The notes below the pieces were generated by a model that was not told the origin of the DNA, did not search any database, and saw only the letters and a list, made by a program, of their open reading frames with translations. Below are positions 1-31,500 of a DNA stretch of 64,000 nucleotides, piece after piece; position 1 is the stretch's first letter; every line of letters starts with the position of its first letter. Location: the NCBI GenBank assembly GCA_036172245.1, contig JAYWIR010000030.1:2170001-2234000 (forward strand), in the 5' to 3' direction. Source of the stretch: Raillietiella orientalis (Eukaryota). Position numbers and translations under genes: made by a program.

Positions 1-123
1 TTGTGTAGGTTTCAGATTTTGTGGTAAAGTAACGAAAATTTTTTTTAGTTTTTTAGTGTAACCTGTTTTAATAAATGATTTCATAATTTCTAAATATGGA
101 ATAAATTTGTGAATGTTTTTCAG

Positions 124-9100: not shown

Positions 9101-12100
9101 ATTCAGATTGCCCCCTTAATCAAGCCTGTATTAAGTGGAAGTGTCGTGATCCTTGCTATGATGTCTGTGGGAAATCTGCAATTTGTGAAGCCATTATGCA
9201 TGTCCCTGTATGCACTTGCCCTGAAGGTTTCACTGGTGATCCATTTTCATTTTGTGAACGAAGTAAGTATAGTATGTCAATAACTTTGCTGTTTACAGAA
9301 TGTCTCCAGTCAGGTTAACAGATCATACCACCACTTCAGCTATTGATCCTTGTTCTCCATCTCCTTGTGGAGCTAATGCTGCTTGTACAATACTTAGCAA
9401 TAGACCATTGTGCACATGTTTACCTGAATATTTTGGCAATCCTCACATTTCTTGTCATCCTGAATGCGTCCTTGATTCAGATTGTCCAACTTATAAGCAT
9501 TGCAAAAATAATAAGTGCATAAATGTGTGTCCTGGTGTTTGTGGTATTAATGCTGAATGTATAACTATAAATCATCATCCTATGTGTTCCTGCGCTGATG
9601 GATATACAGGAGATCCATTTCAATCTTGCAATTGTGAGCACATGGAATCTAGAGTCAGCAAATCACTTGCCTTGTGAATTTCAGTAATTTTGTCAACTAC
9701 TACAATTTCAGTCTTTCAAAATTTATGTTATCCTTCTCCATGTGGAATAAACACGAAATGTGAAATCATAGCAGGACGTCCTGTGTGTACATGCAAAAAA
9801 GGGTTCTTTGGTAACCCCAATGAAGGTTGTCGTCGAGAATGCACATTAAATACAGATTGTGCTTCCCATCTTGCATGTATTAATTACAAATGTCAAGATT
9901 CTTGTTTAAATGTTTGTGGTATTAACGCACAATGTGAAACTTATAATCACAATCCTTTATGTTCTTGTCCTGAAGGGTACTCAGGTGATCCTTTAGAACG
10001 TTGTAAAATCGGTAAATACCTTCATGTCATTTCATCGCATTTCATGGAAATTATGCAAGCATCTATTACTCAGTCAAATGTTTGCATTTTGTCTGTGAGC
10101 TATGTTATGTAATGCTTTTTTGTTTTGTGTAATTGCTTATTATCCATAACAAAATTAATGGATTAATTTTTGTCTTAATGTTCAAAATAGTCATTTAATT
10201 TTTTCTATGGAATATTGCCATGAAAATGAGAATTCTGATGTTGTGTTTTTATTCCATCAGTTGCATCTGTGCCAACTCTTTCTGATCTCTGTAATCCTAA
10301 TCCCTGTGGTATTCGTGCAGAATGTAAAGTGATCAATGAGAAGCATTTTTGTACTTGCCCCCCGGGATTTGAAGGAAATCCCGAAATTCGCTGTCAAGCG
10401 GAGTGTGAAATACATGCAGAGTGCTCCCCAGGAAAAGTTTGTATAAATTACCAGTGTCAGGATCCTTGTATTGGTGCATGTGGTGTTAATGCACACTGTG
10501 AAGTTATCAACGATCATGCATTTTGCACTTGCGCAGCAGAATATGATGGCGATCCTCTTGTTCAGTGTACGCGGAAACCTCCCGGTAATATTTCCTATTA
10601 ACTTGCAAAATAGTATGAATGATTTTTAGTTTCTCCATCTACAGTGCGACCTGAGTGTATCACAAATGGTGAATGTCCTCTAAACCTTGCATGTATTCAG
10701 AATCGATGCCAGGATCTATGTGTTTTGTATCCTGGAATATGTGTTCAGAATGCAGATTGTAAAATGAAATACCACCGTCCTTTTTGTACATGTCGTGATG
10801 GTTTCGTTGGTAATCCTGCAGAACAGTGTGCAGAATGTAATTCAAATTTTGTCAAAAACAATGAGTATCTAATTCCCTATATTTTTTTTTAGCTGGCTGC
10901 TATTCCAATAATGACTGTGATATAACTGAAGCCTGCATTAACAAACAATGCCAAGATCCTTGCATATTTCAAAGTTGTGGTTTTGGTGCTCAGTGTCAAG
11001 TTCAGAACCACAGACCTCAATGCAAATGTCCTATATACTTCACTGGAAATCCTCTGAAACATTGTGAAAGACCAGAATGTTTGTCAAATGATGAGTGCCC
11101 ATTTGTCTTGGCTTGTAAAGACCATCATTGCAAAGATCCATGTAACTGTGGATTGCATGCAGAATGTCAAGTTTTCAACCATCGTCCACAGTGTCGATGC
11201 CCATTTGGATTTGATGGCGATCCTTTAGTTCAGTGTTATTCACGTAAGAAAGAAAAAATGCTTTCTTAATAAATGTATAATGAACTCAGGTACAACATCC
11301 TCATCAGTAGGATGCAGCTCAGATTCTGAGTGTCAGTCTAATTTAGCATGCTTCAATGGTGATTGTGTAAATCCATGTTCCGTTAGCAATCCATGTGGAA
11401 AGAATTCTGTTTGTTCAGTTGTAAATACATTACCATTGAGAGCAATAATTTGCCAGTGTCCAGCTGGAACAACCGGAAATCCAGATGTAGAATGCTCACA
11501 ATGTAAGATGGAAATTGTAAAATTTCTCACATTTATAAGTATCATTGAGACATGTAATTAATGATTGTCCTTTCCCAGTATCCGTCACAGATATCGGCTG
11601 TATGAATGACTTGAGTTGCAAGAATAATGAAATATGTAGAAATCAGCAATGCATTAATCCATGCAGCTTCTTAAGCAACTGTGCTGTCAGTGCCACCTGT
11701 GATGTCCACAATCATCAAATGAAATGTACTTGCCCTGACGGTTTTACTGGGAATCCACAAGAACACTGTTATGCAAGTAAGAACAAGTGCAATTATGTCT
11801 TTATATTGTAAGAACAAAGTAAAAGAAGAAAATGCCTTTGTTTTTATACCCATGATCAATAATCGCTGGAATTGTCTTCTTTCCAGTTTCATTAGTTCCT
11901 CAAGCAGAGTGTCATATTGATGAGAATTGTGTCACAGTTCAAGCTTGTATCAATTCAGAATGTCAAGATCCATGTTCTGTGACTCAAGCTTGTGCTAGGA
12001 ATGCTAAATGTAAAACACAACAACACAGACCATTTTGTTCTTGTGCAGATGGATGGGTCGGTAATCCTCACATTCGTTGCTTTCGGCGTAAGTTTCGTTT

Positions 12101-13517
12101 TAGCTTTCACGGCTTCATGTTTTGATGTTTTCTTTGATGAACATGCATATTAATGTCCATTTTCATAATATAGAAAGTTAGGCATACAATTTGGATTTTG
12201 TATTGTTTTAATATTTCATTTGCAAATTGTCAATTGAAGTTGACTGCATGTGTATTTGTCAAGTTGAAATGGTAGTTCATTTAATCTTGAAAAGTTTGGC
12301 ATTCAAAGATTTGTTCGTTTCAAATATCTAAAAATTTTGTTCAGATAATTTGATTCAAAATTAAGCAAATTTATTTACTATTTTTAGCTGAATGTTTAAA
12401 CGCAAGTGAATGCCCGTATGATAAGGATTGCATTAATGGGAAGTGTTTAAATCCTTGCCAATATGGAAATGTAAACTGTGGACAGAATGCACTTTGCCAT
12501 GTTCTCAAACATGAAGCTCATTGCATGTGCCCCCCCGGAACCCAGGGAAATCCCAACACAGTTTGCATAACTGCTGGGTGTCTTTCCGATCAGCAGTGTC
12601 AGACTAATGAAATATGTGACCGTGTAAATGGTCGTTGTTCTCCTGTATGTCAATTTAATTCTTGTCCATCCACTGCATATTGTAAAGGCGAGAACCATAA
12701 GGCAATATGTATCTGCCCAGAAGGATATCGAGGAAACCCTTACATAAATTGCAGAATTGGTATGGTGTACTGTGATCATCAATAGATTTCTGTTTTCTAG
12801 AATTACCAGCCACTTCAACAGCTAAGCCTGAGTGTGTACGTGATTCAGATTGCCCATCGCAATTAGCTTGTTTGACAGAGACTTGTCAGAATCCATGTTT
12901 AATAGATAAAGCATGCTATCCAGATCAAAAATGTAGTGTCTTAAGTACAGCTCCATTAAAAACCATAATCTGTGAATGTCCTTTGGATACTGTTTTATCT
13001 ACATCTGGAAAGTGCATTGTCCCAGGTGAATTTCAATGTGCTGTCACATAATACAGTAACAAATTCATGTAGGGCCTCATCAAGAATGCTTCAGCGACGT
13101 AGAGTGTTCTTCTATACAAAAATGTAATGCTGGAAAATGTGAAAATCCATGTTTTGTTGGCGACCCTTGTCCAGCCAGTGCTTTTTGTATTCCTCAAAAT
13201 CACAAGTCACAATGCACATGTCCATCAGGAACTACAGGAAATCCAAATTTATTATGTGAACCAGGTAAGAGGAACCTCAGAAACAATACTCGATCACCAA
13301 GTGTATTGATCACTTCTGTATCTCCAGTACGGCCACTTCACTGCATTAACAATCAGCAGTGTTCTCTTGAAGAGTTTTGTTTCGATGGAGAATGCCGCAA
13401 TCCTTGTGATCGACACTTATGTGCATTATCAGCTCATTGTATTGTTGAAAATCATCAGCCTATTTGTAAATGTCCAGCAGGAATGCAAGGAAATCCACTT
13501 ATAGAATGCAAGCCAGG
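124..13517 (+). CDS. dpy: Dumpy exon block: EGF-DPY-EGF repeat exons, mostly ~300 bp with phase-1 introns
   Basis: Repeated exons such as 5813-6134, 8222-8536 and 8944-9262 each encode one EGF+DPY+EGF unit ('CRPEC..NSDCP...AC'). Most introns are 43-60 nt, with a few of 0.3-1.3 kb. Boundaries were read by eye. Confidence 0.88.
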
Positions 13518-16500
13518 TATGAATTATAAACAAATAATGTATAACATAAAACTAATCACATAATTTCTCTAAAAGATGAATTGCGATAACAGATTTTAAC
13601 TTTCTTTTGTGTTACAGTCCAAACCATTTACGAAGATAAGCCTTCCTGTACAAATGATATTCAGTGCTCACCAGATGAAGCATGCATTTCGGGCATATGT
13701 AAGGATCCATGTTCATGTGGATCAAATGCCAAATGTACAGTGGTCAAACATCGACCCATATGCAGCTGTCTACAGGGATTCACAGGAAACCCCCACATAG
13801 AGTGCAGAGAAGGTAATTCATTTCTTACATGATTTTCACATTCCTATATTAAATTACATACAAAAAAATCAAATGAACCCTATGGATTCACTGCATGATG
13901 TTCTTCGTCTAGACTTTAATTTATAATCAACAAAATACACGTAACTCCATATACCAATTTCAGTTGGATGCATCTCGGATTCTCAGTGTACAGCACAAGA
14001 ACTTTGCTACCTACAAAACTGCGTCAATCCCTGTAGCATTCGCAATCCATGTGCCATCAATGCCAAGTGCATTCCCGTTAATCATCAAGCAAGCTGCGAA
14101 TGTCCACAGGGCATGAAAGGAGATCCACACAGTAGATGTATTACAGAAGGATGCCATAACGACAAAGAATGCCCTTCAGAGAATACATGTTTTTTCAATC
14201 AGTGTGTAAACCCATGCCTATATAGTAATCCTTGCGCCCCAAATGCAATCTGCTCCACTGTTAATCATCTTATAAAATGCGATTGTTTACCTTCATCAAC
14301 CGGGGATCCGTATATTCTCTGCAAGACAGCATATGATTCACAATGCAACAACGACTACAATTGTAGTCGGGGATTGGCATGTATCGATCAGCAGTGTATT
14401 GATCCTTGTGCACAAGTGCAACCATGCACAGGAGCATCAAGATGCCAATTAATGGAAACAGTACCTGTAAAAACCATGATTTGCGCATGCCCAACAGGAT
14501 ACACTCAAAACGAAAAACAACAGTGTGAACCAGGTAAACAACAAATCATACATTAGACATTCTACTCCAAAACCAACTCCCACCATTACAGCAACTTAAC
14601 ACGAAACACCACTATCATTAGTATATATCACATTAATCTAAGATTCACTCACCTTTTCCACAGTACAACTACCCAAACAAGAATACGGATGCCAAGTGGA
14701 CAGCGAATGCACTACAAGACAAGCATGCATTAACCGAGACTGCAGGGACCCGTGCAACTGCGGCCTCAACGCGGAGTGCACGGTGGTCAACCACCGTCCC
14801 CTGTGCCGCTGTCCACCCGGATTCGAAGGCAGCCCGCACGTGTCGTGCGTGGAATGTAGGTTCTCTGCTGTGTGCAGCGGCTTGGTATCAGCTGAGAATG
14901 TCGATTTGCAGCGGGCTGCCAGTCGGATGGAGACTGCTCTCCGTCTCAGACGTGCTTCAACCGGAACTGCGTGAACCCTTGCCTGCTGCGCAACCCGTGC
15001 GCCATCAACGCGCAGTGCGGTCCCCAGAACCACAAGGCTTCTTGTCGTTGTCCGCCCGGCACGAGGGGCGATGGATACTCGCGCTGCCTGCCGGAAGGGT
15101 GTTCTTCCGATCGGGAGTGCCCTTCGTCCCAGATGCAGCACCGCCAGTGCGTGGGACCCAAACACCGCAGTAGGCGCGCCGAACGCGAATCCGTCCCGAA
15201 CAACCATCGTGCTCTGTGCTTCTGCCCAGCACCGTTGACGGGCGAGCCCTCACGTCATCTGCCAGCTGGAGCGCCAGCGGATTGCATTGAGGGGACGCGG
15301 ACTGCCCTTCTAAGCTGTCCTGTTTGGAAGGGAATGTTGACCGTGTTTGCTCTGAGCCCGCTGCACCATACCTGTCTAGGTGCGAGGTGCTGGACACGTT
15401 GCCTGTGCGGTCCATGACTTGCGTTTGTCCTCCTGGTTACGTGCTGTCCGGCAGCGATCGCTGCGAACCCGGTAAGAAGGGCATTGTGTGATGGGTACGG
15501 GAATGGCGGCATGGTGTCTGGACATCGCTTGGATTTGCAGCGCCCTTGCGAGGTCCTGTCGCTCGCGTGGCGATCCCCCGTCGGCTGCGAAGCGGAGGCG
15601 CCTTCGCCTGCCTCTTGGTGTGCTGAGAGCGGAATCGGGTTTGTGTGTGTGAAGGTGCGGTGGAGCTGGCTTACCAGCTCCGCTGGCGGGGTAAGGGCTT
15701 CCTCACTCTCGGCCCGTGTCCGAAGCTGTGCTAAGACTCTGGTCTTTGAGCGGGCGCTTGGTTTCCCGGTGGGATGTCGCGGCCGTGGTGAAACTCGGCA
15801 GCGCTGCTGCGCCTCCGTTGTTGTGTGCGACGGCTTCCTGATTCTTGCCACCGGTCTGCCTGCTCACCGCGTGGACGAGCGGTCGGGGTGTTCGGTGCTG
15901 GCGATGCTGCTGCCGAGCGACCGTGGCTTTCTGCGTCTGGGTTGCCCACGCGGGCTCGCCGTCCCGGCTCTTCGTACCGTCCAGGGACTTCTCGTCGTGT
16001 TCGTTTCTGCTATTCCTGAATTCTTTCCTCGTTTGTGTGTCTGTTTTCCGTTTTGTTTTGCTAGCTCAGCGTGAGGTCTCCTTGTCACGCCACGTGCTTG
16101 CGAAGGCTTGCTGTGTGGGCGGCGCGAGGGGGATAGCGGGGCATGGGATGGGCGACGGGCGAGTGTGCGCTGCGTGCGCGACTGTGTGTTTCTGCTGAGC
16201 GTGCGCGCTCGATTTGTGGGGTCTGTGCGCCCTGCTGATGGCTGATGGCTTTCTTAGTGCCACCACCGCAAGGCGAGGTGGGCTGCAAGGACGATCAGGA
16301 GTGTCCTTCGAACCAGGCCTGCATCAGCCGAGACTGCAGGGACCCGTGCAACTGCGGCCTCAACGCGGAGTGCACGGTGGTCAACCACCGTCCCCTGTGC
16401 CGCTGTCCACCCGGATTCGAAGGCAGCCCGCACGTGTCGTGCGTGGAATGTAGGTTCTCTGCTGTGTGCAGCGGCTTGGTATCAGCTGAGAATGTCGATT

Positions 16501-19500
16501 TGCAGCGGGCTGCCAGTCGGATGGAGACTGCTCTCCGTCTCAGACGTGCTTCACCCGGAACTGCGTGAACCCTTGCCTGCTGCGCAACCCGTGCGCCATC
16601 AACGCGCAGTGCGTTCCCCAGAACCACAAGGCTTCTTGTCGTTGTCCGCCCGGCACGAGGGGTGATGGATACCGCGCTGCCCGCCGGAAGGGTGTTCTTT
16701 CCGACTGGGAGTACTTCGTCCCAGATGTGCAGCAACCGCCAGTGTGCGGACCCGTGCCTGCTCCTTCGCAGCAGTGCGCGCCGAACGCGAACTGCGGCCC
16801 GGGACAACCATCAAAAAAAAAAGCCCAAAGCTTCGCCCACACCTCGTTGACGGGCGACCTCGTCATTCGCCAGCTGAGTGCCAGCGGGATTGCACGAGGG
16901 ACGCGGACTGCCCTTCGAAGCTGTCCTGTTTGGAAGGGGAATGTTTGGACCCGTGCTCTGCTCTGAGCCCGTGCACCGGCCTTGTCTAGGCAGGTGTGCT
17001 GCACGTGCTTCGTTCGTGCGGTCCATGACTTGCGTTTTCTGTCCTCCTGGTTACGTGCTGTCCGCAGCGATCGCTGCGAACCCGGTAAGAAGGGCATTGT
17101 GTGATGGGTACGGGAATGGCGGCATGGTGTCTGGACATCGCTTGGATTTGCAGCGCCCTTGCGAGGTCCTGTCGCTCGCGTGGCGATCCCCCGTCGGCTG
17201 CGAAGCGGAGGCGCCTTCGCCTGCCTCTTGGTGTGCTGGGAGCGGAATCGGGTTTGTGTGTGTGAAGGTGCGGTGGAGCTGGCTTACCAGCTCCGCTGGC
17301 GGGGTAAGGGCTTCCTCACTCTCGGCCCGCGTCCGAAGCTGTGCTAAGACTCTGGTCGTTGAGCGGGCGCTTGGTTTCCCGGTGGGATGTCGCGGCCGTG
17401 GTGAAACTCGGCAGCGCTGCTGCGCCTCCGTTGTTGTGTGCGACGGCTTCCTGATTCTTGCCAGCACGCCGTGGTCTGCTCGCTCACTGCGTGGACGAGC
17501 GGTCGGGGTGTTCGGTGCTGGCGATGCTGCTGCCGAGCGACCGTGGCGTTTCTGCGCCTGGGTTGCCCACGCGGGTTCGCTGTCCTGGCTCTTCGTACCG
17601 TCCAGGACTTCGCCGTTCGTTTCTGCTGCTTCCGGAATCTCTTCCTCGTTTGTGTGTCTCCAGTCCGTTTTGTTTCACAGCCCAACCCACGGTCTCCTCG
17701 TCACGCCACGTGCTTGCGAAGGCTTGCTGTGTGGGCGGCGCGAGGGGGATAGCGGGGCATGGGATGGGCGACGGGCGAGTGTGCGCTGCGTGCGCGACGG
17801 TGTGTTTCTGCTGAGCGTGCGCGCTCGATTTGTGGGGTCTGTGCGCCCTGCTGATGGCTGATGGCTTTCTTAGTGCCACCACCGCAAGGCGAGGCCGCGG
17901 AGGACGATCAGGAGGTCCTTCGAACCAGGCCTGCATCAAAGCCGAGACCGCAGGGATCTGCACCGGGTGGCCTCAACGCGGAGTGCACGGTGGTCAACCA
18001 CCGTCCCCTGTGCCGCTGTCCACCCGGATTCGAAGGCAGCCCGCACGTGTCGTGCGTGGAATGGTGGTTCTCTGCCGTGCGTGCAGCATTTCTGGTATCG
18101 GCTGAACGTCGATTTGCAGCGGGCTGCCAGTCGGATGGAGACCGCTCTCCGTCTCAGACGTGCTTCAACCGGAACTGCGTGAACCCTTGCCTGCTGCGCA
18201 ACCCGTGCGCCATCAACGCGCAGTGCGTTCCCCAGAACCACAAGGCTTCTTGTCGTTGTCCGCCCGGCACGAGGGGCGATGGATACTCGCGCTGCCTGCC
18301 GGAAGGGTGTTCTTCCGATCGGGAGTGCCCTTCGTCCCAGATGTGCAGCAACCGCCAGTGCGTGGACCCGTGCCTGTTCTCGCAGCAGTGCGCGCCGAAC
18401 GCGAACTGCGTCCCGAACAACCATCGTGCCCAGTGCTTCTGCCCAGCACCGTTGACGGGCGACCCTCACGTCATCTGCCAGCTGGAGCGCCAGCGGGATT
18501 GCACGGATGACGCGGACTGCCCTTCGAAGCTGTCCTGTTTGGAAGGGGAATGTTTGGACCCGTGCTCTGCTCTGAGCCCGTGCACCGGCCCGTTCAGGGT
18601 GCGAGGTGCTGGACACGCTGCCTGTGCGGTCCATGACTTGCATTGAGTCCTCCTGGTTACGGCTGTCCGGCAGCGATCGCTGCGAACCCGGTAAGAAGGG
18701 CATTGTGTGATGGGTACGGGAATGGCGGCATGGTGTCTGGACATCGCTTGCATTTGCAGCGCCCTTGCGAGGTCCTGTCGCTCGCGTGGCGATCCCCCGT
18801 CGGCTGCGAAGCGGAGGCGCCTTCGCCTGCCTCTTGGTGTGCTGAGAGCGGAATCGGGTTTGTGTGTGTGAAGGTGCGGTGGAGCTGGCTTACCAGCTCC
18901 GCTGGCGGGGTAAGGGCTTCCTCACTCTCGGCCCGCGTCCGAAGCTGTGCTAAGACTCTGGTCTTTGAGTGGGCGCTTGGTTTCCCGGTGGGATGTCGCG
19001 GCCGTGGTGAAACTCGGCAGCGCTGCTGCGCCTCCGTTGTTGTGTGCGACGGCTTCCTGATTCTTGCCAGCACGCCGTGGTCTGCTCGCTCACTGCGTGG
19101 ACGAGCGGTCGGGGTGTTCGGTGCTGGCGATGCTGCTGCCGATGACCGTGGCGTTTCTGCGCCGGGGTTGCCACGCGGGCTCGCTGTCCGTCTTCGTACC
19201 GTCCAGGACTTCTCGTCGTCTGCTTCTGCTTGCTTCCGGAATTCTTCTCGTTTGTGTGTCTGTTTTCCGTTTTGTTTTGGTTAGCTCTGCCGCGAGGTTC
19301 CCGTCGCCGCCACGTGCTTGGCAGCCGCTGCTGTGTGGCGGCGCGAGGATAGCGGGGCATGGGATGGGCGGGATGGCGAGCGGCGCTGCGTGCGCGACCG
19401 TGTGTTTCTGCCGAGCGTGCGCGCTCGATTTGTGGGGTCTGTGCGCCCCGTTGATGGCTGATGTTGGATGGGGCCACCACTGCAAGGCGAGGTGGGCTGC

Positions 19501-22500
19501 AAGGACGACCAGAGTGTCCTTCGAACCAGGCCTGCATCAGCCGAGACTGCAGGGACCCGTGCAACTGCGGCCTCAACGCGGAGTGCACGGTGGTCAACCA
19601 CCGTCCCCTGTGCCGCTGTCCACCCGGATTCGAAGGCAGCCCGCACGTGTCGTGCGTGGAATGTAGGTTCTCTGCTGTGTGCAGCGGCTTGGTATCAGCT
19701 GAGAATGTCGATTTGCAGCGGGCTGCCAGTCGGATGGAGACTGCTCTCCGTCTCAGACGTGCTTCAACCGGAACTGCGTGAACCCTTGCCTGCTGCGCAA
19801 CCCGTGCGCCATCAACGCGCAGTGCGTTCCCCAGAACCACAAGGCTTCTTGTCGTTGTCCGCCCGGCACGAGGGGCGATGGATACTCGCGCTGCCTACCG
19901 GAAGGGTGTTCTTCCGATCGGGAGTGCCCTTCGTCCCAGATGTGCAGCAACCGCCAGTGCGTGGACCCGTGCCTGTTCTCGCAGCAGTGCGCGCCGAACG
20001 CGAACTGCGTCCCGAACAACCATCGTGCCCAGTGCTTCGGCCCAGCACCGTTGACGGGCGACCCTCACGTCATCTGCCAGCTGGAGCGCCAGCGGGATTG
20101 CACGGAGGACGCGGACTGCCCTTCGAAGCTGTCCTGTTTGAAGGGGAATGTTTGGACCCGTGCTCTGCTCTGTTTCTCCGCACTGCGGGCCCTGTCTAGG
20201 TGCGAGGTGAAGTGACAGCCCGTGCGGTCCATGACTTGCGTCATCCTCTGAGCTGGGGTCATTCAAGAAGGATCGCCGCGTGAACCCGGTAAGAAGGGCA
20301 TTGTGTGATGGGTACGGGAATGGCGGCATGGTGTCTGGACATCGCTTGACGGTGCCTGCGAGGTCCTGTCGCTTCGCGGCGATCCCCCGTCGGCTGCGAA
20401 GCGGAGGCGCCCCTCTGCCTGCTCTTGTGCTGGGAGCTGTGGAATCGGGTTTGTGTGAAGGTACGGTGGAGCGGGTTTACTAGGCCCGCTGGCGGGGTAA
20501 GGGCTCTCCTCGGCCTGCATCCGAAGCTGTGCTAAGACTCTGGTCTTTGAGCGGGCGCTTGGTTTCCCGGTGGGATGTCGCGGCCGTGGTGAAACTCGGC
20601 AGCGCTGCTGCGCCTCCGTTGTTGTGTGCGACGGCTTCCTGATTCTTGCCAGCACGCCGTGGTCTGCTCGCTCACTGCGTGGACGAGCGGTCGGGGTGTT
20701 CGGTGCTGGCGATGCTGCTGCCGAGCGACCGTGGCGTTTCTGCGCCTGGGTTGCCCACGCGGGTTCGCTGTCCTGGCTCTTCGTACCGTCCAGGACTTCT
20801 CGTCGTGTTCGTTTCTGCTGCTTCCGGAATTCTTTCCTCGTTTGTGTGTCTGTTTTCCGTTTTGTTTTGCTAGCTCGCTGCGAGGTCTCCTTGTCACGCC
20901 ACGTGCTTGCGAAGGCTTGCTGTGTGGGCGGCGCGAGGGGGATAGCGGGGCATGGGATGGGCGACGGGCGAGTGTGCGCTGCGTGCGCGACTGTGTGTTT
21001 CTGCTGAGCGTGCGCGCTCGATTTGTGGGGTCTGTGCGCCCTGCTGATGGCTGATGGCTTTCTTAGTGCCACCACCGCAAGGCGAGGTGGGCTGCAAGGA
21101 CGATCAGGAGTGTCCTTCGAACCAGGCCTGCATCAGCCGAGACCGTAGGACCCGCAACTGCGGCTCAACGCGGGAGTGCACGGTGGTCAACCAACGTCCC
21201 CTGTGCCGCTGTCCACCCGGACGGAAGGCAGCCCGCACGTGTCGTGCGTGGAATGTAGGTTCTCTGCTGTGTGCAGCGGCTTGGTATCAGCTGAGAATGT
21301 CGATTTGCAGCGGGCTGCCAGTCGGATGGAGACTGCTCTCCGTCTCAGACGTGCTTCAACCGGAACTGCGTGAACCCTTGCCTGCTGCGCAACCCGTGCG
21401 CCATCAACGCGCAGTGCGTTCCCCAGAACCACAAGGCTTCTTGTCGTTGTCCGCCCGGCACGAGGGGCGATGGATACTCGCGCTGCCTGCCGGAAGGGTG
21501 TTCTTCCGATCGGGAGTGCCCTTCGTCCCAGATGTGCAGCAACCGCCAGTGCGTGGACCCGTGCCTGTTCTCGCAGCAGTGCGCGCCGAACGCGAACTGC
21601 GTCCCGAACAACCATCGTGCCCAGTGCTTCTGCCCAGCACCGTTGACGGGCGACCCTCACGTCATCTGCCAGCTGGAGCGCCAGCGGGATTGCACGGAGG
21701 ACGCGGACTGCCCTTCGAAGCTGTCCTGTTTGGAAGGGGAATGTTTGGACCCGTGCTCTGCTCTGAGCCCGTGCACCGGCCTGTCTAGGTGCGAGGTGCT
21801 GGACACGTTGCCTGGGGTATCCATGACTCTGCGTTTGTCCTCCTGGTTACGTGCTGTCCGGCAGCGATCGCTGCGAACCCGCAGTAAGAAGGGCATTGTG
21901 TGATGGGTACGGGAATGGCGTACGGTGTCCGGACATCGCTTGATTTGCAGCGCCTGCGAGGTCCTGCTCGCGTGGCGATCCCCTGTCGTCGGTGAAGGAG
22001 GCGCCTGCCTGCCTCGGCAGTGCTGAGAGCGGAATCGGGTTTGTGTGTGTGAAGGTGCGGTGGAGCTGGCTTACCAGCTCCGCTGGCGGGGTAAGGGCTT
22101 CCTCACTCTCGGCCCGCGTCCGAAGCTGTGCTAAGACTCTGGTCGTTGAGCGGGCGCTTGGTTTCCCGGTGGGATGTCGCGGCCGTGGTGAAACTCGGCA
22201 GCGCTGCTGCGCCTCCGTTGTTGTGTGCGACGGCTTCCTGATTCTTGCCAGCACGCCGTGGTCTGCTCGCTCACTGCGTGGACGAGCGGTCGGGGTGTTC
22301 GGTGCTGGCGATGCTGCTGCCGAGCGACCGTGGCGTTTCTGCTCCTGGGTTGCCCACGCGGGTTCGCTGTCCTGGCTCTTCGTACCGTCCAGGACTTCTC
22401 GTCGTGTTCGTTTCTGCTGCTTCCGGAATTCTTTCCTCGTTTGTGTGTCTGTTTTCCGTTTTGTTTTGCTAGCTCGCTGCGAGGTCTCCTTGTCACGCCA

Positions 22501-25500
22501 CGTGCTTGCGAAGGCTTGCTGTGTGGGCGGCGCGAGGGGGATAGCGGGGCATGGGATGGGCGACGGGCGAGTGTGCGCTGCGTGCGCGACTGTGTGTTTC
22601 TGCTGAGCGTGCGCGCTCGATTTGTGGGGTCTGTGCGCCCTGCTGATGGCTGATGGCTTTCTTAGTGCCACCACCGCAAGGCGAGGTGGGCTGCAAGGAC
22701 GATCAGGAGTGTCCTTCGAACCAGGCCTGCATCAGCCGAGACTGCAGGGACCCGTGCAACTGCGGCCTCAACGCGGAGTGCATCGCGGTCAACCACCGTC
22801 CCCAAGGTGCCGCTGTCCACCCGGATTCGAAGGCAGGCCCGCACGTGTCGTGCGTGGAATGTAGGTTCTCTGCTGTGTGCAGCGGCTTGGTATCAGCTGA
22901 GGAACGTCGATTTGCAGCGGGCTGCCAGTCGGATGGAGACTGCCTCCGTCTCCAGACGTGCTTCAACCGGAACTGCGTGAAATCTTCCTTGCCTTCGCTG
23001 CGCAACCCGTGCGCCATCAACGCGCAGTGCGTTCCCCAGAACCACAAGGCTTCTTGTCGTTGTCCGCCCGGCAATGAAAGGAGCGGATACCGCGCTGCCT
23101 GCCGGAAGGGTGTTCTTCCGATCGGAGTGCCCTTCCAGATGTGCAGCAACCGCCAGTGCGTGGACCCGTGCCTGTTCTCGCAGCAGTGCGCGCCGAACGC
23201 GAACTGCGTCCCGAACAACCATCGTGCCCAGTGCTTCTGCCCAGCACCGTTGACGGGCGACCCTCACGTCATCTGCCAGCTGGAGCGCCAGCGGGATTGC
23301 ACGGAGGACGCGGACTGCCCTTCGAAGCTGTCCTGTTTGGAAGGGGAATGTTTGGACCCGTGCTCTGCTCTGAGCCCGTGCACCGGCCTGTCTAGGTGCG
23401 AGGTGCTGGACACGTTGCCTGTGCGGTCCATGACTTGCGTTTGTCCTCCTGGTTACGTGCTGTCCGGCAGCGATCGCTGCGAACCCGGTAAGAAGGGCAT
23501 TGTGTGATGGGTACGGGAATGGCGGCATGGTGTCTGGACATCGCTTGCATTTGCAGCGCCCTTGCGAGGTCCTGTCGCTCGCGTGGCGATCCCCCGTCGG
23601 CTGCGAAGCGGAGGCGCCTTCGCCTGCCTCTTGTTGTGCTGAGAGCGGAATCGGGTTTGTGTGTGTGAAGGTGCGGTGGAGCTGGCTTACCAGCTCCGCT
23701 GGCGGGGTAAGGGCTTCCTCACTCTCGGCCCGTGTCCGAAGCTGTGCTAAGACTCTGGTCTTTGAGCGGGCGCTTGGTTCCCGGTGGAAGGTCGCGGCCG
23801 TGGCGGTCGGCGGCAGCGCCGCTGCGCCTCCACTGCGTCGAAGGATCGCCTTGGTGGCCCTTGCCAGCACGCCGTGGTCTGCTCGCTCAATGCGTGGACG
23901 AGCGGTCGGGGTGTTCGGTGCCGTATGATGCTGCTGCCGAGCGACCGTGGCGTTTCTGCGCCTGGGTTGCCCACGCGGGTTCGCGGTCCTGGCTCTTCGT
24001 ACCGTCCAGGACTTCTCGTCGTGTTCGTTTCTGCTGCTTCCGGAATTCTTTCCTCGTTTGTGTGTCTGTTTTCCGNNNNNNNNNNNNNNNNNNNNNNNNN
24101 NNNNNNNNNNNNNNNNNNNNNNNNNNNNNNNNNNNNNNNNNNNNNNNNNNNNNNNNNNNNNNNNNNNNNNNCAGCGCTGCTGCGCCTCCGTTGTTGTGGG
24201 CGACGGCTTCCTGATCCTTGCCAGGCCACCGGTTTGTTCTCTTTTAGTCTGTAAGTGAGCAGTCAGGTTGTTGGGTGTTGTTTGATAATTTTTTCAGGGG
24301 CCATCTCTTTTCAGTTTGAGGTTTGTCACTCGTAAGGTTCAGTTTTTGGTACGCGAATCTATGGAGATTTTCAAACACTTTTTCGACTTTTATACGTGCT
24401 TTGACGGTTCATTTGTTCCTGTGTGTGTTACGTGTTTGGTTTGTGATTCTTCGTTTCTTTATTTTTGATCTCTTTTTCTTTTTTAATTTTGTTCGATTTG
24501 CTGTTTTGTTTGGCTTCTTCTGTGGTGGTTGTTCTCGTTTGTGTGGATTTGGAATAGATTGTATATTTTTTTATTTGAGGATTTTGAGTTTATTTGTTTA
24601 TTACTATTTGTTTTTGTCTTTTGTTTTTAGTTTCCAAGGAAGACGATGGATTCTGTAAATCTGATTCGGGATGTGCCTCAAACTTAGCTTGTGTTAACAG
24701 TGTGTGTCTTGATCCCTGTAATTGCGGTTCAAATGCTGTTTGTTCTGTTGCCAGTCATCGCCCATCCTGCACTTGTCCTTTGAATTCTTTTGGTAATCCT
24801 TTGATTTCTTGTTTTAAAGGTTAGTTTTTGTTATTTTTTGATTGTTTTTTTACCTATTTGTTTTTTAAGGTGACTGTGTTTCTGATAATGATTGTCCAAT
24901 TTCTGAAGTGTGTAGGAAGTTCCATTGCCATAATGTTTGTTCAGTATTCAATCCTTGTGCCATTAATGCAATGTGTATACCTCACAATCATAGAGCCACT
25001 TGTGAGTGCCCTGCTGGAATGAAGGGTGACCCATTTAAGCACTGTATCCCCTCTGGTTGTCGTTCAAAGCTGGAGTGCCCTCTGTTGGAGATTTGTGTCA
25101 ATGGGCGATGTGTTAACCCTTGTCTTTTTGAAAACAGATGTGCTGTAAATGCTGAATGCATCCCTAGTCGTCATGATTCTGTTTGCTTTTGTCCGGCTCC
25201 TTTGATTGGAGACCCGTATAAGCTATGTGCTTTTGAAAAGCAATTTGAATGTTCTGTGGATTCTGATTGTGGAAAGGGACTTGTTTGTTTGGATCATGTT
25301 TGTAAGAATCCGTGCTTATCTTCACAGCCTTGTGGAGGATTGGGAAGGTGTTCCGTAGTGGATACTCACCCTGTGAAGTCAATGGTGTGCTCATGTCCAT
25401 CTGGATATGTTCTTGCTGATGGCAACATCTGTCAACCTGGTAATGTTTGTTTTTTTGAGGGGGGATTGTTTTTTTTTGGTTTGCAGGTTGATTTGTTTTT

Positions 25501-28500
25501 TGGCGTAGTTTTTATTTTATTTGTTTGAAGGAATGTTTGGTTTCTGTTGGTACATATTCTTTAAATGTTAAATTGTTTGCTTTATTTATTTGCAATGTAT
25601 AGTTAGCTTTTTTGATGTGTTGTTTTTGTTCTGGTTGTTTTTTTCTATCTAATTTTTTTCCCTTTCTAGTGATTTGTGTCTTTTAATGCTTTTTGTGATC
25701 TTTTTTTACTATTGAACGAAGTTTTATTTTATTTTACTTAATCTGGTTTAGTTTTCCCGTTCAGTGTTGTTTTGAATTTTGGTTCGTTTTTTTGTTGATT
25801 TACTTTATTGGTTTTCATTAGTCATCCCTTTTTTACTCATGTTCTGTCTGTATTTTTTTTCTTGTGGGATGTTTTTACTATTCTTTCTTTCATCTTTTCA
25901 ATAATTTTCTTTTTTTTTTTGTAGATATATTCCCATTTTTTCAGTGTTTTTGGTTTTGTTTGGTTTATGTTCGATGTTTTGGTATGTCAGTCATTTGCTG
26001 AATGCATTCTTGGAAGAATTTGGTTTTATGGTATTAATGTTATGTAGGTGCATGGAATGCATATGTGTATGCATTTGGAATCAGTTTTTTGTTTGAAATT
26101 TTTCATTTTGAAAGTTGTTTATTTTATTTTCGTTCTAATTGTGAATAATTTCATGTGACCCATATTACTATGGTTTGTTCATTAGCTGTTGGTTGTTGTT
26201 GATTTGAATTGTTTTTATTTTTAACTTTTTGAGTTTTCTCTGCTGGGTATTTGGTTTTGTCTCTGTTTAGTGTCAAAAGCAATACCAATGCTTCAATTTT
26301 CGGTTTTTGATTATTATCAATGTTTTGTTTGCTTTGGTTTTGGTATTGTTTTATTTGAATCCCTTGACAGTGTAGCTCTTTCTAATTTATTGTGTAGACT
26401 ACAATATTTTTATATTGTTCATTGTGTTGCATTTTTTGGCAATATTTTTTTTTAAGGGTGTGTTGAGTTTCGTTTGTTTATTTTTTTTGGTAGTATTTGT
26501 CTTGTTTTCTGAAGTCTTTGCAAGTATTCTTTCTAAAGAGATTTGGAATTTTATAGCTGTTCATAATTGAAATTTTTTTTTGGAATTGAATATTAAATTG
26601 TTTTGCTTTGAGATTTTTGATTTTTGACTCGGTATTTTTTGTCAGGAATATTATTGTTTGAAAACATTTTCATTCAACTGCTCCTAGGTGTTGACTTTTG
26701 TTTCAAACTGGATTTTGAATATGTGCTTCTAGCAATTTTTGTGTATTTTTTTGTAAACTTTTGAATGATTTGGAGCTCACTTGTTGTTTAGAAAATCTTT
26801 TTTTATATTCATATTTTTTTTATTTTTGATTGTTTTCCTTGCAGTCATGAGATTTCATTCAGTATAGCTCAATTGATGATTCTTATAGTATTTAGTCTAT
26901 TGTCTATATCATGTGAAGTCTTTGAGGATGCTGCTTGTTAATAATTTTCATCATGTTGCTTGATTTTGATATCATTCCTGGGCTTCCAGTCGCACAAGTG
27001 TTTTATTGTTTTTAATGATTCAAATATTCAATTAGGGAATGTTTTTTGTGACCTGTTTTTAATTTTTAGTCTGATAATGGACGTAATGTATTAATTTGCA
27101 GATATGCTAATTTTTCTTGATTGTATCTAATAATGACTTAGCAGATAATCTGAAGGGATTATATAATGTGAACTGAAAGTCACTGAAGTTTTTTAAATCT
27201 TGGCATTTCAGTCTATGATACATTGGAGAAAATGGGTTGTACTTCTCATGAGCAGTGCCCTGTGAATGAAGCCTGCATCAATGGTCAATGCAAAGATGCC
27301 TGCAATTGTGGTCTCAATGCCGTGTGTACTGTGAAAGATCACAGACCAATATGTAGATGCCCACCTGGTTATGAAGGACCAGCTTATATTGCATGTACAG
27401 AATGTAGGTTTACTTTATTGTATGATTTCAAAATTGCTGCTGTTGCTTTTCTTTTTAGCTGGTTGTAGCTCAGACACACAATGCTCTTTGCTGCAGACCT
27501 GTTATAACCATGACTGTGTTAATCCTTGTAGTATAAGTAATCCATGTGCTATTAATGCACAGTGCACACCTAAAGATCACAAATCGACTTGTCAGTGCCC
27601 TTTAGGAATGAAAGGCGATGGATATACTCGTTGTCTACCTGAAGGATGCTCATCTGACCATGACTGTTCTCAGTCACAAATATGTCTAAATCGTCAGTGT
27701 GTTAATCCATGCCTGCATAGGAATCCTTGTGCTCCCAATGCTGAGTGTTTTGCAAATAACCATCGAGCTGAATGCTATTGTTCACCCTCAATGACTGGCA
27801 ATCCTTATGTGATATGTGAAAGTCTTCAAGAACCTGAATGTGTTCGTGATGAAGATTGCCCAAACAAGTTAGGTTGCTTCAATCAAGTTTGTCTCGACCC
27901 TTGCTCCTTAATAAAGCCCTGTGTTGGGATAGCTAAATGCGAAGTTATAAACATTTTACCTGTAAGATTGATGATTTGCATGTGTCCTTTGGGATACATA
28001 TTATCTTCGGATAACAAATGTGTACCAGGTAAAATTCATATCTATGTCCAATTTTTAGCTGTAGTTTTTGGCTTGTTAGGCTGTTTGTGTTCGCAAATGT
28101 TTGTGCTTTTCTTACTTTATTCGTCTTTTCATTGAAAAATTTAATTTTGGAAAATTCGCTGTCAACCATTGTTTGTTCATGTTCCGTTTATGTCAGTATT
28201 TTGAATTTCATAAGTTTGGTTATATTTTTATTTTGACCATTTTTGACGAATTTTTTTTCACGTAATTTATAGTGCAGCAACAATTAACTAAAGTAGGATG
28301 CACCACGGACAGCGATTGTTCTTCTAATCAGGCTTGCATTAATGGAAATTGTAAGGATCCTTGCATATGTGGGTTGAATGCTCAATGCACTGTCATTAAT
28401 CATCATCCAATTTGTACGTGTTTATCGGGATACGAGGGAAATCCTCAGCTTTCTTGCACAAAATGTAAGTCATGTATGTTGGTGGACATGCATTTCTATT

Positions 28501-31500
28501 CGTCTTTTCCAGCTGGCTGTTCAAGCAATTTAGAATGTCCACCCACACATGCATGCATCAATGGCCTTTGTATCAATGCTTGTATTATCCATAATCCATG
28601 TGCAGTTAATGCTCGATGTATTCCACGAAACCATAAAGCCACTTGCCAGTGCCCAGCAGGAACAAGCGGAAATGGACTGACTTATTGCATTCCAGAGGGA
28701 TGTCAGTCACATGAGGATTGTTTATCAACCCAAGCATGCATTAATCGTCAATGTGTTAATCCTTGTTTATTTAATAACCTTTGTGCACCTAATGCAGCGT
28801 GCATTCCCAAGGACCATAGATCCCATTGTTTTTGTTCTCCTCCAATGATTGGTGATCCTTATATTGTATGTCATGCTGATCAGCAGTTCGAATGTACCCA
28901 GGATGCTGACTGTCAAAGTGGACTTGCTTGTTTACAGCATGAATGCCAAAATCCATGTAACACTATTCAGCCATGCACACGTCCTGCCAGATGCGAAGTA
29001 ATTAACACTTTGCCAGTTAAAACTATGATTTGTGTTTGCCCGTCAGGATTCATTCAACGTGAAAATAATGTTTGCAAACCAGGTAATAGCAACAATGTGT
29101 TTAAATTTCTTTTGCAGTATTCTTGGAAATTCTTTAAATTCGTGTTTCATTTTTTACCGTGGTATTTTGTAAAAGTTGCATAATTATAATGAATTCAGTC
29201 ACACACTCTTCATTCATTCGGACCTCAATTTTTTTTAGAAGATTTTTTATAGCTTCATATTCTTTTTAAGTGTTAGTATTTTTTTTAAATTAATAGCCCT
29301 ATATAATTGCATTTTTTCTATTCTATTGATAACATTGGCATGAAAGGAAAAGTTCTCAGAATCCAATTGTAACAAATCAATTTGTTTTTCTCTTTCTCTC
29401 TCTCTCTCTCTCCTGCTTTAGTTCAAGAATCATTTTTGCTCGAGGGATGTCAGAATGACGACAATTGTGCTTCGAATCAAGCCTGCATAAATAATGTCTG
29501 TAAGGACATTTGTAATTGTGGTCTGCTAGCACTATGTGAGGTCATAAATCATCGTCCTCTGTGTAAGTGTCCACCTGGTCATGAAGGCAATCCACAGGTT
29601 TCCTGTACCAAAAGTAAGATAATACTATGTTTAATCTTTTTATGATTTGAATGCCTATTTTTTAGCTGGCTGCGAATCTGATATGGATTGTTCACTTATA
29701 AATACCTGTCACAATCATATATGTGTTAACCCTTGCGTTATTAAGAATCCTTGTTCTCCAAGTGCTCAGTGTATCCCACAAAACCATCGTTCTACTTGTC
29801 ATTGCCCTTCAGGATATAAAGGCGATCCTTATATGCTGTGTAAACGTATAGAATGTCAATCAGACTTTGAGTGTCCATCAACCGAGGCATGTTATAAAGA
29901 GCAATGTATTAACCCATGTCTGCACTCTAATGTTTGTGCCCCAAATGCGGACTGCATTGCAAAGAATCATATTGCTGAATGCTTTTGCCTTCCTCCATTA
30001 ACTGGAAATCCTTATGAACTTTGTAAAGCAGAAAAGCGCCCACTCTGTGTTGAAGATAGTGATTGCCCAAATAAGTTAGCATGTCTAAAGGGAAATTGTC
30101 AAAATCCATGCACTGCTTTGAGACCGTGTTCTGGTTTATCCCAATGTGAAGTGCTTGATACCATTCCTGTAAGAACTATGATATGCATATGTCCAACTGG
30201 ATATCAACAGGGAGATCAACAATGTGATCCAGGTATGGATGAATTAAACTTAGATTTTTATTTGAATCAAAATGATTGCGGATTTGCCGTTTTTGTTTTT
30301 CTGTTCTTCTCGTTGTTTGTACTTTTGAAGTTTTCAAGGAGTATTCACCTTGATTTCAATCATATTTGACAATAATAGCAACGTTTCAAAGTTAATTCGA
30401 AAATATGGTAAACCATGGTTGCTTGAGTACCAGTTGATTTGATTTTTCGATAATGGGTGTTAATTAGAATGATGGAAAGTGTGTTTTTGACATGATAGGG
30501 TGTATGGTCATATGAGACAATTGTGTATTTTTCCAATACCACAAAAAGCTGAATTGTCTTCGGAAAAAACTTTTTTAACCTTGGAATTCCAATGAATAAA
30601 GTGCTTGATGTACATGTGTTTGCATGTAGTTACACCTGTAATATATATCATTTTAGACAAATGAAATTTGGTAAACAAGTATATCGATCAAAAACGCTCA
30701 TTTTAAGTTTCAACCTGTCATCAGTCCAAATCGAAAGAAGGCTTAATTTTTTTATTCCTGTTGAATATAAAAACCTTATTTTATTATGCAGGTCTTATTT
30801 CACTGCTTTTCTCGATTATTTGCTCAAATCTTAAATATGATGCCGCATTTTAAGGTTGTTCAAGTGTCAGTTGGGCTCCAGCATAATAAATCAATGAAGG
30901 TTTAATTCCTGCAATATTGGTTTTGTCTAGTGGAAGTATTTTAATTATTAATTGTATTTAAGAAAACAGTCAGTTTAGATCGTATTGCATCGTTATTTTA
31001 AAGATTAACTATTTATTGGGTGTTGATGTGTACTATCATTATATGAGTTTTGGATACTGTATGTATTTTGTCTTAGTTCCCAGACTGTCTCATGATGGTG
31101 GTTGTATCAATGACAATGAATGTTCATCGGATCAAGCATGTATAAATAGCAGATGCGGCAATCCATGCACCTGTGCAAAAAGTGCAACGTGCATTGTTAT
31201 TAACCATCATCCTGTGTGTTCTTGCCCTCCTGGATTTGAAGGCAATGCTCATATATCCTGCACTGAGAGTAAGTGAAAAGGAGTTTTTGGTTTTTTTTAA
31301 TGTGCTATCGTTTTTTCAGTCGGATGCAGATCTGATTCTGAGTGTTCCAATGTCCAGACGTGTTATAACCGTATTTGCGTTGATTCTTGTAGTATCAACC
31401 GGCCATGTGCCATCAATGCACAATGCATTTCTGAAAATCATCGTTCAACTTGTCGTTGTCCTCCAGGAACAAAAGGGGATGGATTTACTCCTTGTATTCC

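Follow-up and report, generated by a model that had tools for sequence, protein, structure and literature searches.

Within a 64,000-nucleotide stretch of Raillietiella orientalis DNA (the window; contig JAYWIR010000030.1, positions 2,170,001 to 2,234,000), each kb between 15 and 24 kb has a GC of 0.62-0.65, against 0.28-0.40 in the gene body to either side. How could one segment of a gene acquire a composition so different from that of the rest of the same gene? The original prediction, made from the letters, placed here a tandem array inside dumpy, kept alike by ongoing unequal crossing-over or gene conversion and rewritten in its base composition by GC-biased conversion.

Judged by its predicted domains, the host gene is dumpy-like with alternating EGF and DPY modules. 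Dumpy itself is a giant protein of the apical matrix that anchors the cuticle and ends in a zona pellucida domain and a transmembrane anchor. The Pfam model Dumpy_DPY reaches 36.2 bits (cut-off 27) in an upstream exon at 2076-2567, together with EGF_3, and database relatives bear PF21164 and PF12947. In the array units Dumpy_DPY scores 22.5-22.9 bits, under the same cut-off, with EGF_3 alongside. The exon at 38475-38828 scores 22.5 bits, also under the cut-off of 27, with CUT_N (cuticlin N-terminal, the ZP-N side), and DUF5874 is found at 37917-38216 with 33.1 bits. No PIGSFEAST or proline-rich insert was detected among the cysteine-rich frames of the window, which covers part of the gene.

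The array runs head-to-tail over 14734-24232 with a period of 1592-1616 nt and is made up of five complete units, two incomplete ones and a stub, the ~1.6-kb module being present in at least seven copies. Direct-repeat families occur in six copies with spacings of 1594, 1614, 1599, 1592 and 1607 nt, and anchors place the unit starts at 14903, 16497, 18111, 19710, 21302 and 22909. The claim of one two-exon EGF/DPY module, repeated with both introns at least six times at ~1.6 kb, is thus borne out. The span originally given, 14734..24230, is right at its 5' start, but the 3' edge really lies at ~24232, inside intron 2. TRF missed the array for the sole reason that its maximum period was 500. The majority unit is 1613 nt long (exon B 571, intron 2 794, exon A 192 and intron 1 56), although exon B has 570 nt in two copies. 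Once spliced it gives 254 codons in frame, close to the ~250 amino acids foreseen per copy, and its spliced joins are the expected gaat/cggg and cccg/tgcc. Each intron is bounded by GT..AG; all six copies have an intact acceptor before exon B and four of five before exon A, and the GT donors are retained in every copy. Exon A (192 nt) and exon B (570 nt) are each divisible by three, and their alternation continues through both edges of the array, which is not a whole number of units, as it begins in exon A and stops in intron 2. The parts of the array are the following.

14734..24232, plus strand: whole GC-rich homogenised block, a two-exon module and its two introns in tandem, with an N run inside; 63% GC, CpG o/e 1.0
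14664..14855, plus strand: exon A copy 1; 192 nt, in frame, a hybrid that is AT-rich to 14733 and unit-identical from 14734
14856..14911, plus strand: unit intron 1, first copy; 56 nt, GT..AG, 52% GC
14912..15471, plus strand: exon B copy 1; 560 nt in the assembly where the consensus has 570-571, four scrambled patches breaking the frame
15472..16257, plus strand: intron 2 copy 1; 786 nt, GT..AG, 63% GC, A only 10%, CpG o/e 1.05
16258..16449, plus strand: exon A copy 2; 192 nt, intact, 10 Cys
16497..18110, plus strand: unit 2; 1614 nt, ten scrambled patches
18111..19709, plus strand: unit 3; 1599 nt
19710..21301, plus strand: unit 4; 1592 nt
21302..22908, plus strand: unit 5; 1607 nt, with an open, stop-free exon B (21311-21883)
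22666-22860, plus strand: unit 5 exon A; in frame, internally scrambled
22909..24075, plus strand: unit 6, ended by the N run at unit position 1167; its exon B (22918-23487) has 570 nt and is open and stop-free
24076..24171, no strand: N run in the array, 96 N; unit phase passes from 1167 to 908
24172..24232, plus strand: final stub of intron 2, still GC-rich; matches the unit at 55/61 positions
24233..24640, plus strand: last intron 2, AT-rich rest; still weakly similar to the tail of the unit's intron

Intron 2 matched no Rfam family, the other frames had no Pfam domain, and no similar sequence was found elsewhere in the window. We conclude that a dumpy-like gene genuinely contains a tandem array of a two-exon EGF/DPY module, which confirms the central claim of a spliceable cysteine module repeated with its introns.

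The N run, which the original prediction overlooked, falls within the array and indicates that the assembler had difficulty here; the phase jump across it implies that at least 1353 nt are absent, namely one further exon A and one further exon B. Together with the scrambled patches within copies and the occurrence of the sequence in one public run only, as three short contigs, this gap is what would be expected of an assembly artefact, in which a repeat was collapsed or stuttered or foreign GC-rich DNA was joined on as a chimera. We regard such an artefact as highly improbable. The 5' junction is in frame within a homologous exon and is bridged by a 248-nt read-derived contig that spans 14688-14935 with 0 differences, leaving 46 and 202 nt on either side of the edge, and the sequence past the gap is continuous through the 3' transition. 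Exons A and B keep alternating over both edges, the nearest relatives of the unit are its own neighbours, and the variable columns common to two copies (n=21), some of them non-adjacent, are not what random stutter would produce. The run in question (X1), a DNA run of low coverage, is public as contigs only, and its depth is uninformative on copy number; in it array sequence alone got to contig depth, the 2.2-kb single-copy flank giving none.

Where did the unit come from? Two of the paralogous modules of the gene serve as reference.

13966..14478, plus strand: upstream neighbouring exon B paralogue; GC3 0.36, CpG o/e 0.55, 50% amino acid identity to the array
27461..27961, plus strand: closest paralogue by identity; 59% amino acid identity, GC3 0.28, CpG o/e 0.37

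The second of these is in a near tie with the module at 31322-31822 (58%). Proteins of other species reach at most 48% in the longer proteins and 51% at near length (58% over 59% of the query), and protein database searches returned none above 58% identity. A quick tree built from 98 module rows groups the array with seven neighbouring modules in one clade (SH-aLRT 100) that contains no foreign row, and since the unit nests with these modules of its own gene, it arose in place. The stem of the array (0.39) is not longer than the end branches of its neighbours (0.55-1.23), which suggests that the array protein remained under constraint.

The compositional change reaches every class of site. The array has 63% GC and a CpG o/e of 1.01, whereas the flanks have 36% GC and 0.41/0.50; the abundance of CpG noted at the outset is therefore genuine, and the counts of 39/60 G+C at 15001-15060 and 27/60 at 27541-27600 were exact on recount. 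A comparison of GC3 and intron GC, proposed with the original prediction, came out in its favour: the array has a GC3 of 0.78-0.80, ten paralogous modules one of 0.24-0.36, and the GC of intron 2 is 0.63 where seven intron stretches of the flanks have 0.26-0.37. The first and second codon positions (GC1, GC2) are richer in GC too, GARP residues amount to 0.28-0.32 against 0.16-0.26 in the ten paralogues, and FYMINK is down in the array. Cysteine is encoded by TGC in 30/37 cases in the array and 103/270 in the paralogues, and asparagine by AAC in 15/15 and 31/131. At codons for the same residue, S in the array faces W in the paralogue in 55-57 cases, and the opposite holds in 3-6. Because the change spans third, first and second codon positions, amino acid usage and introns, it points to a neutral regional bias and away from selection on the protein, and argues for a regional composition bias without codon or protein drive. 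As GC3 (0.8) exceeds intron GC (0.63), one uniform equilibrium does not fit all sites.

The edges of this change coincide with the edges of homology. GC steps from 0.45 (14681-14733) to 0.69 (14734-14800) at the 5' side and from 0.69 (24172-24232) to 0.38 (24233-24300) at the 3' side. The first exon A copy is identical to the unit consensus at 169/169 positions from 14734 and at 47/89 leftward, a count that begins at 14640 and so takes in the end of the preceding intron. Both GC edges match the homology edges within a few bases, the 5' one falling within an exon, and the GC shift is confined to the tract of inter-copy identity. Beyond the 3' edge ~470 nt separate the stub from the following exon, against ~460 in the unit, and 24233-24640 aligns with the unit's intron tail with a global score of -71, which is reached by none of 300 shuffles (maximum -74) and none of 22 windows from other introns (maximum -94). 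This residual similarity is weak (z 3.3), and purine/pyrimidine coding of the same comparison gave no gain (z 2.4; best shuffle 127 against 123 observed). The AT-rich remainder of the intron fits an unconverted, ancestral-like state.

Between copies the likeness includes the non-coding parts. Outside short patches intron likeness equals exon likeness, with identical runs of 257-385 columns, as had been claimed for the introns, whereas the other modules of the gene in the window are 60-73% alike at the DNA level in their exons only and show no intron similarity, in agreement with the high divergence first ascribed to them. Homogenisation by unequal exchange or conversion is therefore well supported. 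Such identity is also expected of young duplicates, and a recent amplification of an already GC-rich segment, either an unmethylated CpG-island-like domain or a segment converted from a GC-rich dumpy-like paralogue at another place in the genome, would explain it by youth and without any conversion bias. A second GC-rich, CpG-replete block at 49-56 kb, which is not repeated, indicates that other routes to GC-rich DNA exist in this genome, and the clean break within an exon at the 5' edge is what one recombination event would produce. However, amplification of this kind requires that the edges of the old GC island coincided with both duplication breakpoints within a few bases; the block does not hold an integer number of units, from its start in exon A to its end in intron 2, which fits a homogenisation domain better, and the unit nests among the neighbouring modules of its own gene. 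We consider this origin unlikely.

The copies differ in 38 scrambled patches, of which 22 are exonic, 15 intronic and one straddling; as exons make up 47% of the unit, patches are not depleted in exons. The variable columns comprise 472 private to a single copy and the 21 common to two, and 423/455 difference events lie within 15 columns of another, separated by long perfect runs; isolated differences between copies are few and unpolarised. As assembled, exon B is open in two of six copies and has stops in the other four, and exon A is frameshifted in two of six; patch-free copies with the consensus reading throughout number 2/6 for exon A and 0/6 for exon B. The original prediction did not remark on the frame breaks in most exon copies. 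We attribute the patches, probably, to assembly noise. If they were true mutations, the array would be real but no longer coding, its exons being skipped or decaying as an internal pseudo-array; the rarity of full consensus readings, the stops in exon B and the equal frequency of patches in exons and introns agree with this, as do the exon lengths in multiples of three, since all exons are phase-symmetric and skipping would preserve the frame. Even so, we find loss of coding quite improbable. Private, clustered differences are unlike scattered decay, the majority reading retains the cysteine pattern, the branch of the array protein is short, and the ten flanking modules have no stop at all. 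Furthermore, the sole independent read-derived contig over a patch, at 15316-15558, carries the patch of exon B copy 1 in its in-frame form.

Taken together, we favour, with a probability of roughly 0.55, an array formed in place, homogenised by exchange or conversion and raised in GC by biased conversion. In this reading one two-exon EGF/DPY module with a short and a long intron has grown in place into seven or more copies, and unequal exchange between sisters or homologues together with inter-copy gene conversion would hold the copies alike. Each inter-copy difference would pass through a heteroduplex in which mismatch repair prefers G:C, such that AT-to-GC changes would spread in the array more often than GC-to-AT ones. 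Over time the repeated segment, exons and introns alike, would have been raised from ~30-40% to 63% GC, with CpG held at expectation within an otherwise CpG-depleted gene body. Conversion would end where homology ends, so composition would switch within a few bases at both edges. Of the process originally proposed, homogenisation of the copies with their introns stands on the identical runs; for the bias, we infer GC-biased conversion as the best explanation of the composition, because the GC edges are the homology edges and because rDNA and histone arrays offer a precedent. The process presumably still runs, and the exons are presumably expressed.

Regarding that precedent, Galtier 2003 reportedly described GC-biased conversion in histone genes, and Escobar 2011 is said to report GC enrichment of concertedly evolving arrays. 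The GC-richness of rDNA has been ascribed to GC-biased conversion (PMC6562748). Arrays of rDNA and mammalian histone genes resemble the present one in that conversion-homogenised copies are the GC-richest in the genome, with biased heteroduplex repair as the accepted cause. Those arrays consist of whole genes or transcription units, whereas the present one lies within a single gene and forms part of it; thus the unconverted flanks of the same transcript provide an internal control, and the edges are legible to a few bases. Mammalian tandem gene arrays are described as AT-biased with few crossovers (PMC10463633), so the tandem layout alone does not predict GC-richness.

Within the same gene family, the PIGSFEAST array of Drosophila dumpy likewise consists of internal near-identical tandem units between diverged EGF-DPY modules, and is said to be treated in Carmon 2007 and Carmon 2010. 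PIGSFEAST is a 102-amino acid repeat of Ser/Thr/Pro type with ~40 copies in one large exon; here the unit is a cysteine module over two exons with both introns homogenised. A compositional jump, the main feature here, is not known to us for PIGSFEAST. Unequal crossing-over is given as the cause of the PIGSFEAST array, which serves as a copy-number marker (PMC2930355). The nearest structural analogue of our array is kringle IV type 2 of human LPA, and the canonical multi-exon, in-frame design of that system is also seen here (192 + 570 nt, 254 codons, GT..AG). The LPA unit, two exons with their introns in a gene for a secreted protein, is ~5.5 kb long and repeated in frame head-to-tail, the copies being near-identical including the introns. 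Its copy-number polymorphism and expression are documented, whereas those of the present array are predicted. We know of no large GC shift in LPA relative to the rest of that gene.

The array is a clean new example of known processes. As it is gapped and noisy in the assembly, gene models drawn through it will break unless it is re-sequenced. A further-reaching statement, which we make only tentatively and at somewhat less than even odds, is that inter-copy conversion alone rewrote ~10 kb of an arthropod gene from ~36% to 63% GC, erased its CpG depletion and shifted its amino acid usage while keeping the cysteine scaffold, the locus being both a reporter of GC-biased conversion and a length-variable segment of Dumpy. 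If true, converted and unconverted versions of a module would stand adjacent in one transcript, and an internal control would exist for reading what biased conversion does to synonymous sites, to introns, to the decay of CpG and to the composition of the protein. Beyond vertebrates and yeast, the locus would show in a natural, internally controlled setting how strong GC-biased conversion is and how far its tracts extend. The EGF/DPY core of Dumpy would change length in whole steps of 254 residues, beyond the Ser/Thr-rich PIGSFEAST, and this length-variable cysteine-module segment would represent a second, distinct concerted domain in the Dumpy family.

The GC-rich array is embedded in a dumpy-like gene, in which the exon at 2076-2567, at 36.2 bits, passes the Pfam cut-off of 27; the modules studied here score 22.5-26.3 bits and lie below that cut-off. 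Between ~13.6 and 37 kb a recurring pair of exons, A and B, makes up the gene, with a short intron between A and B and a longer one after B. The stretch 37917-38828, as judged from its domain matches, probably encodes the anchoring region at the C terminus of the protein.

Layout of the dumpy-like gene (window positions)
~0.2-38.8 kb, forward strand: dumpy-like gene, a long row of cysteine-rich exons matching the Pfam Dumpy_DPY and EGF models
Exon A type, ~64 codons: one EGF-like module
Exon B type, ~190 codons: three modules
From 37917, forward strand: DUF5874 exon at the end of the repeat region, 33.1 bits
Up to 38828, forward strand: weak cuticlin N-terminal/ZP-side (ZP-N) exon, 22.5 bits (cut-off 27, not reached)

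The gene body has 28-40% GC per kb, the exception being 14.7-24.2 kb with 62-65%. No homogenisation was found elsewhere in the gene, the other modules being 60-73% alike and in their exons only, and no repeat families were found in 24.2-40 kb.

The direct-repeat families of the array comprise six copies, of which successive ones lie 1594, 1614, 1599, 1592 and 1607 nt apart, and these six anchored starts bear out the original prediction of at least six copies at ~1.6 kb; TRF was silent on the array because its longest period is 500. Alignment of the units gave a majority unit of 1613 nt, which after splicing amounts to 254 codons in frame, and the junctions gaat|cggg and cccg|tgcc read earlier from the sequence are indeed the spliced joins of the unit.

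Anatomy of the array (window positions)
14664-14855, forward strand: first exon A, an in-frame hybrid with an AT-rich left part and a unit-identical right part
14903, 16497, 18111, 19710, 21302 and 22909, forward strand: unit starts, exact anchors
Exon B of the unit: 571 nt (570 in two copies)
Intron 2 of the unit: 794 nt, GT..AG
Exon A of the unit: 192 nt
Intron 1 of the unit: 56 nt, GT..AG
24076-24171: run of 96 N inside the array

The 5' start of the array falls inside the exon A of the first copy. To the left of 14734 this hybrid exon is identical to the unit at 47 of 89 positions (a count that starts at 14640 and so takes in the last bases of the intron before it), and from 14734 onward at 169 of 169. 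Five full units are followed by a sixth, broken at unit position 1167 by the N run, after which the array re-enters at unit position 908 and lasts 61 nt (55/61 identical to the unit), homology ending at ~24232 within intron 2. The 96 N do not represent the true size of the gap; the change of unit phase from 1167 to 908 means that the assembly lacks 1353 nt or more, among them a further copy of each exon, so that A and B are each present in at least seven copies. The array itself is very probably real.

The assembled copies differ by 378 substitutions and 77 indel events, and 423 of these 455 events lie no more than 15 columns from another, between perfect runs of 257-385 columns. They form 38 scrambled patches of at least four differences each, which together take up 1073 alignment columns, the units themselves amounting to 9173 nt, with 22 patches exonic, 15 intronic and one across a boundary (exons are 47% of the unit). 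As assembled, two of the six copies of exon A are intact, two are in frame but scrambled and two are frameshifted, while exon B is open in two of six copies, both with patches, and carries stops in the other four. Variable columns are private to one copy in 472 cases and common to two copies in 21. A search of public sequencing runs gave a single holder of part of the stretch, X1 (presumed to be DNA, contigs, low coverage; word share 0.12), and none of RNA; three contigs of X1 lie on 12500-16330, all within the array. One of them, of 246 nt on 15316-15558, differs from copy 1 by four substitutions and seven single-base indels, and these differences turn the patch of copy 1 into the in-frame form found in other copies. 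We provisionally read the patches as consensus noise inside the repeat, because the differences are clustered and private to single copies, because the X1 contig has the in-frame form, and because the flanks are error-free, with no stop in ten modules. A real decay of the array, with its exons skipped, is possible since all exons are multiples of three.

Another X1 contig, of 248 nt, matches 14688-14935 without a difference and spans the 5' edge, with 46 nt to one side of it and 202 nt to the other. The 2.2-kb single-copy flank is not represented at contig depth in X1; array-only contigs fit a multi-copy array in a thin run, but contig depth does not give a copy number. The assembled sample and X1 may be one and the same, and X1 is therefore independent of the assembler and not of the individual. 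A chimera or a pure assembly stutter is unlikely, as the alternation of exons A and B is unbroken across both edges of the array and 21 variant columns are common to two copies.

The protein encoded by the unit has its closest relatives within the gene itself, namely the modules at 27461 and 31322 (58-59% identity) and five others (48-56%). Identity to other species does not exceed 48% in longer proteins and is 51% for an ostracod entry; one foreign fragment of 149 aa is 58% identical to the unit, but over only 59% of the query. For the dumpy modules, the closest foreign entries are crustacean and beetle (41-51%). Together with the matches of the neighbouring superoxide dismutase, the proteins indicate an ecdysozoan source, probably an arthropod, and go no further. 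A quick maximum-likelihood tree was computed from 98 rows of modules, 13 of them from the window and at most three from any foreign protein, with support by SH-aLRT only. It groups the two rows of the array with seven neighbouring modules in a single clade (SH-aLRT 100) that contains nothing foreign, and the stem of the array (0.39) is shorter than the end branches of the neighbours (0.55-1.23). On this tree, the region 13945-32753 expanded through lineage-specific duplication of modules, and the GC-rich sub-array came later. We assign an origin in place, with homogenisation, a probability of about 0.9.

A blastn search with the unit as query, over the remainder of the window, returned only six weak exon matches (68-77% identity) and none for the introns, and gave no match to the GC-rich DNA at 49-61 kb. 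A transposon origin of the array intron is therefore unsupported within the window, where the intron matches nothing else. Rfam gave no match over 13500-25500 at E up to 0.1, indicating no known RNA in the conserved intron. Pfam found no family in six long frames of the other strand and introns of the array; such frames are a chance product of 63% GC.

The array has an overall GC of 0.633 against 0.36 in the flanks. The difference extends to all codon positions, GC3 being 0.78-0.80 in the array and 0.24-0.36 in ten paralogous exon B segments, GC1 0.55-0.57 against 0.40-0.52 and GC2 0.57-0.59 against 0.45-0.53, and to the long introns (0.63 against 0.26-0.37 in seven flank stretches), so that the comparison of GC3 and intron GC proposed at the outset separates array from flanking modules at both. 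GARP residues make up 0.28-0.32 of the array and 0.16-0.26 of the flanks, FYMINK residues 0.12-0.13 and 0.15-0.28, respectively. Cysteine is encoded by TGC in 30/37 codons of the array and 103/270 of the flanks, and asparagine by AAC in 15/15 and 31/131. At codons with an unchanged residue in the three equal-length paralogues, 55-57 differences have G/C in the array and A/T in the paralogue, and 3-6 run the other way. The abundance of CpG noted at first sight was borne out by an observed/expected ratio of 1.01, against 0.41 (1-14600) and 0.50 (24300-49000) in flanks which also show a TpG/CpA excess of 1.34-1.51; this depletion and excess read as the signature of germline cytosine methylation in the gene body, which the array appears to escape. 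GC rises from 0.45 to 0.69 at 14733/14734 and falls from 0.69 to 0.38 at 24232/24233, and thus the compositional edges match both ends of the inter-copy identity.

The introns just 3' of the array (24245-27225) are strongly T-rich and A-poor (T 0.52, A 0.15-0.21) and its own long intron is also A-poor (A 0.10); in the two short introns just 5' of it A is abundant, with 0.40 at 13835-13940 and 0.37 at 14560-14675.

Homogenisation that takes in exons and introns together, within a single block surrounded by diverged paralogues, is the expected product of unequal exchange and inter-copy conversion. GC-biased conversion acting on the inter-copy heteroduplex would limit the compositional shift to the tract able to pair between copies, and repair of T:G mismatches towards G:C would hold CpG at expectation despite a CpG-depleted gene body. 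The shift is as strong in introns as at silent sites and the protein composition shifts along with it, which argues for a regional neutral bias and not for selection on codons. We lean slightly towards GC-biased conversion as the cause of the array composition, the main alternative being a segment already GC-rich before its amplification. The original prediction of concerted evolution with GC-biased conversion is thus upheld for the homogenisation of exons and introns in one block, and the GC bias from conversion is something that we infer only. The last intron 2 continues as an AT-rich remainder (~470 nt) that matches the intron tail of the unit (~460 nt) in length and is weakly similar to it, with a global score of -71 against a mean of -99 and a maximum of -74 in 300 shuffles, while 22 windows of another intron scored at most -94, none reaching -71; this weak signal fits a remainder that may retain an unconverted, ancestral-like state. 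Purine/pyrimidine recoding, which would reveal descent from the AT-rich flank intron by transitions alone, performed no better than controls.

Several points count against over-reading conversion. GC3 (0.78-0.80) exceeds intron GC (0.63), and the direction of the AT/GC change is a presumed one. Furthermore, the window holds a second GC-rich, CpG-replete block which is not a repeat, so that GC-rich DNA in this genome is not confined to the array.

Second GC-rich block and adjoining frame (window positions)
49000-56000: second GC-rich block, GC 0.535, CpG observed/expected 0.91, without internal repeats
50368-51093, reverse strand: complete Cu/Zn superoxide dismutase domain in one uninterrupted frame, Sod_Cu 129.6 bits
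56792-57202, forward strand: open frame of 136 aa adjoining the block, no Pfam match

The best database relatives of the superoxide dismutase, from nematodes, spiders and horseshoe crab, are at most 51% identical. The 136-aa frame is presumably similar to the C-terminal portion of a retroelement ORF.

The LPA kringle IV-2 array has two exons plus introns per unit, an architecture common to it and the Raillietiella array. For histone genes, GC-biased conversion was reportedly proposed by Galtier in 2003, and the GC-rich concerted arrays of rDNA and histones would share the same presumed bias with the array described here. Such conversion has been proposed for the GC-richness of rDNA (PMC6562748), and mammalian tandem gene arrays are AT-biased (PMC10463633), which also counts against over-reading of conversion. 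The PIGSFEAST array of Drosophila dumpy is a precedent for unequal exchange or conversion in this gene family (PMC2930355); it is alike in gene family and process, but is another type of repeat and lies within one exon. A literature search on dumpy with concerted evolution, GC content and arthropod biased conversion, reaching few subscription journals, found no GC-rich exon-intron array in dumpy. In an assembly that is gapped and noisy, the Raillietiella array represents an unusually clean, internally controlled example of known processes.
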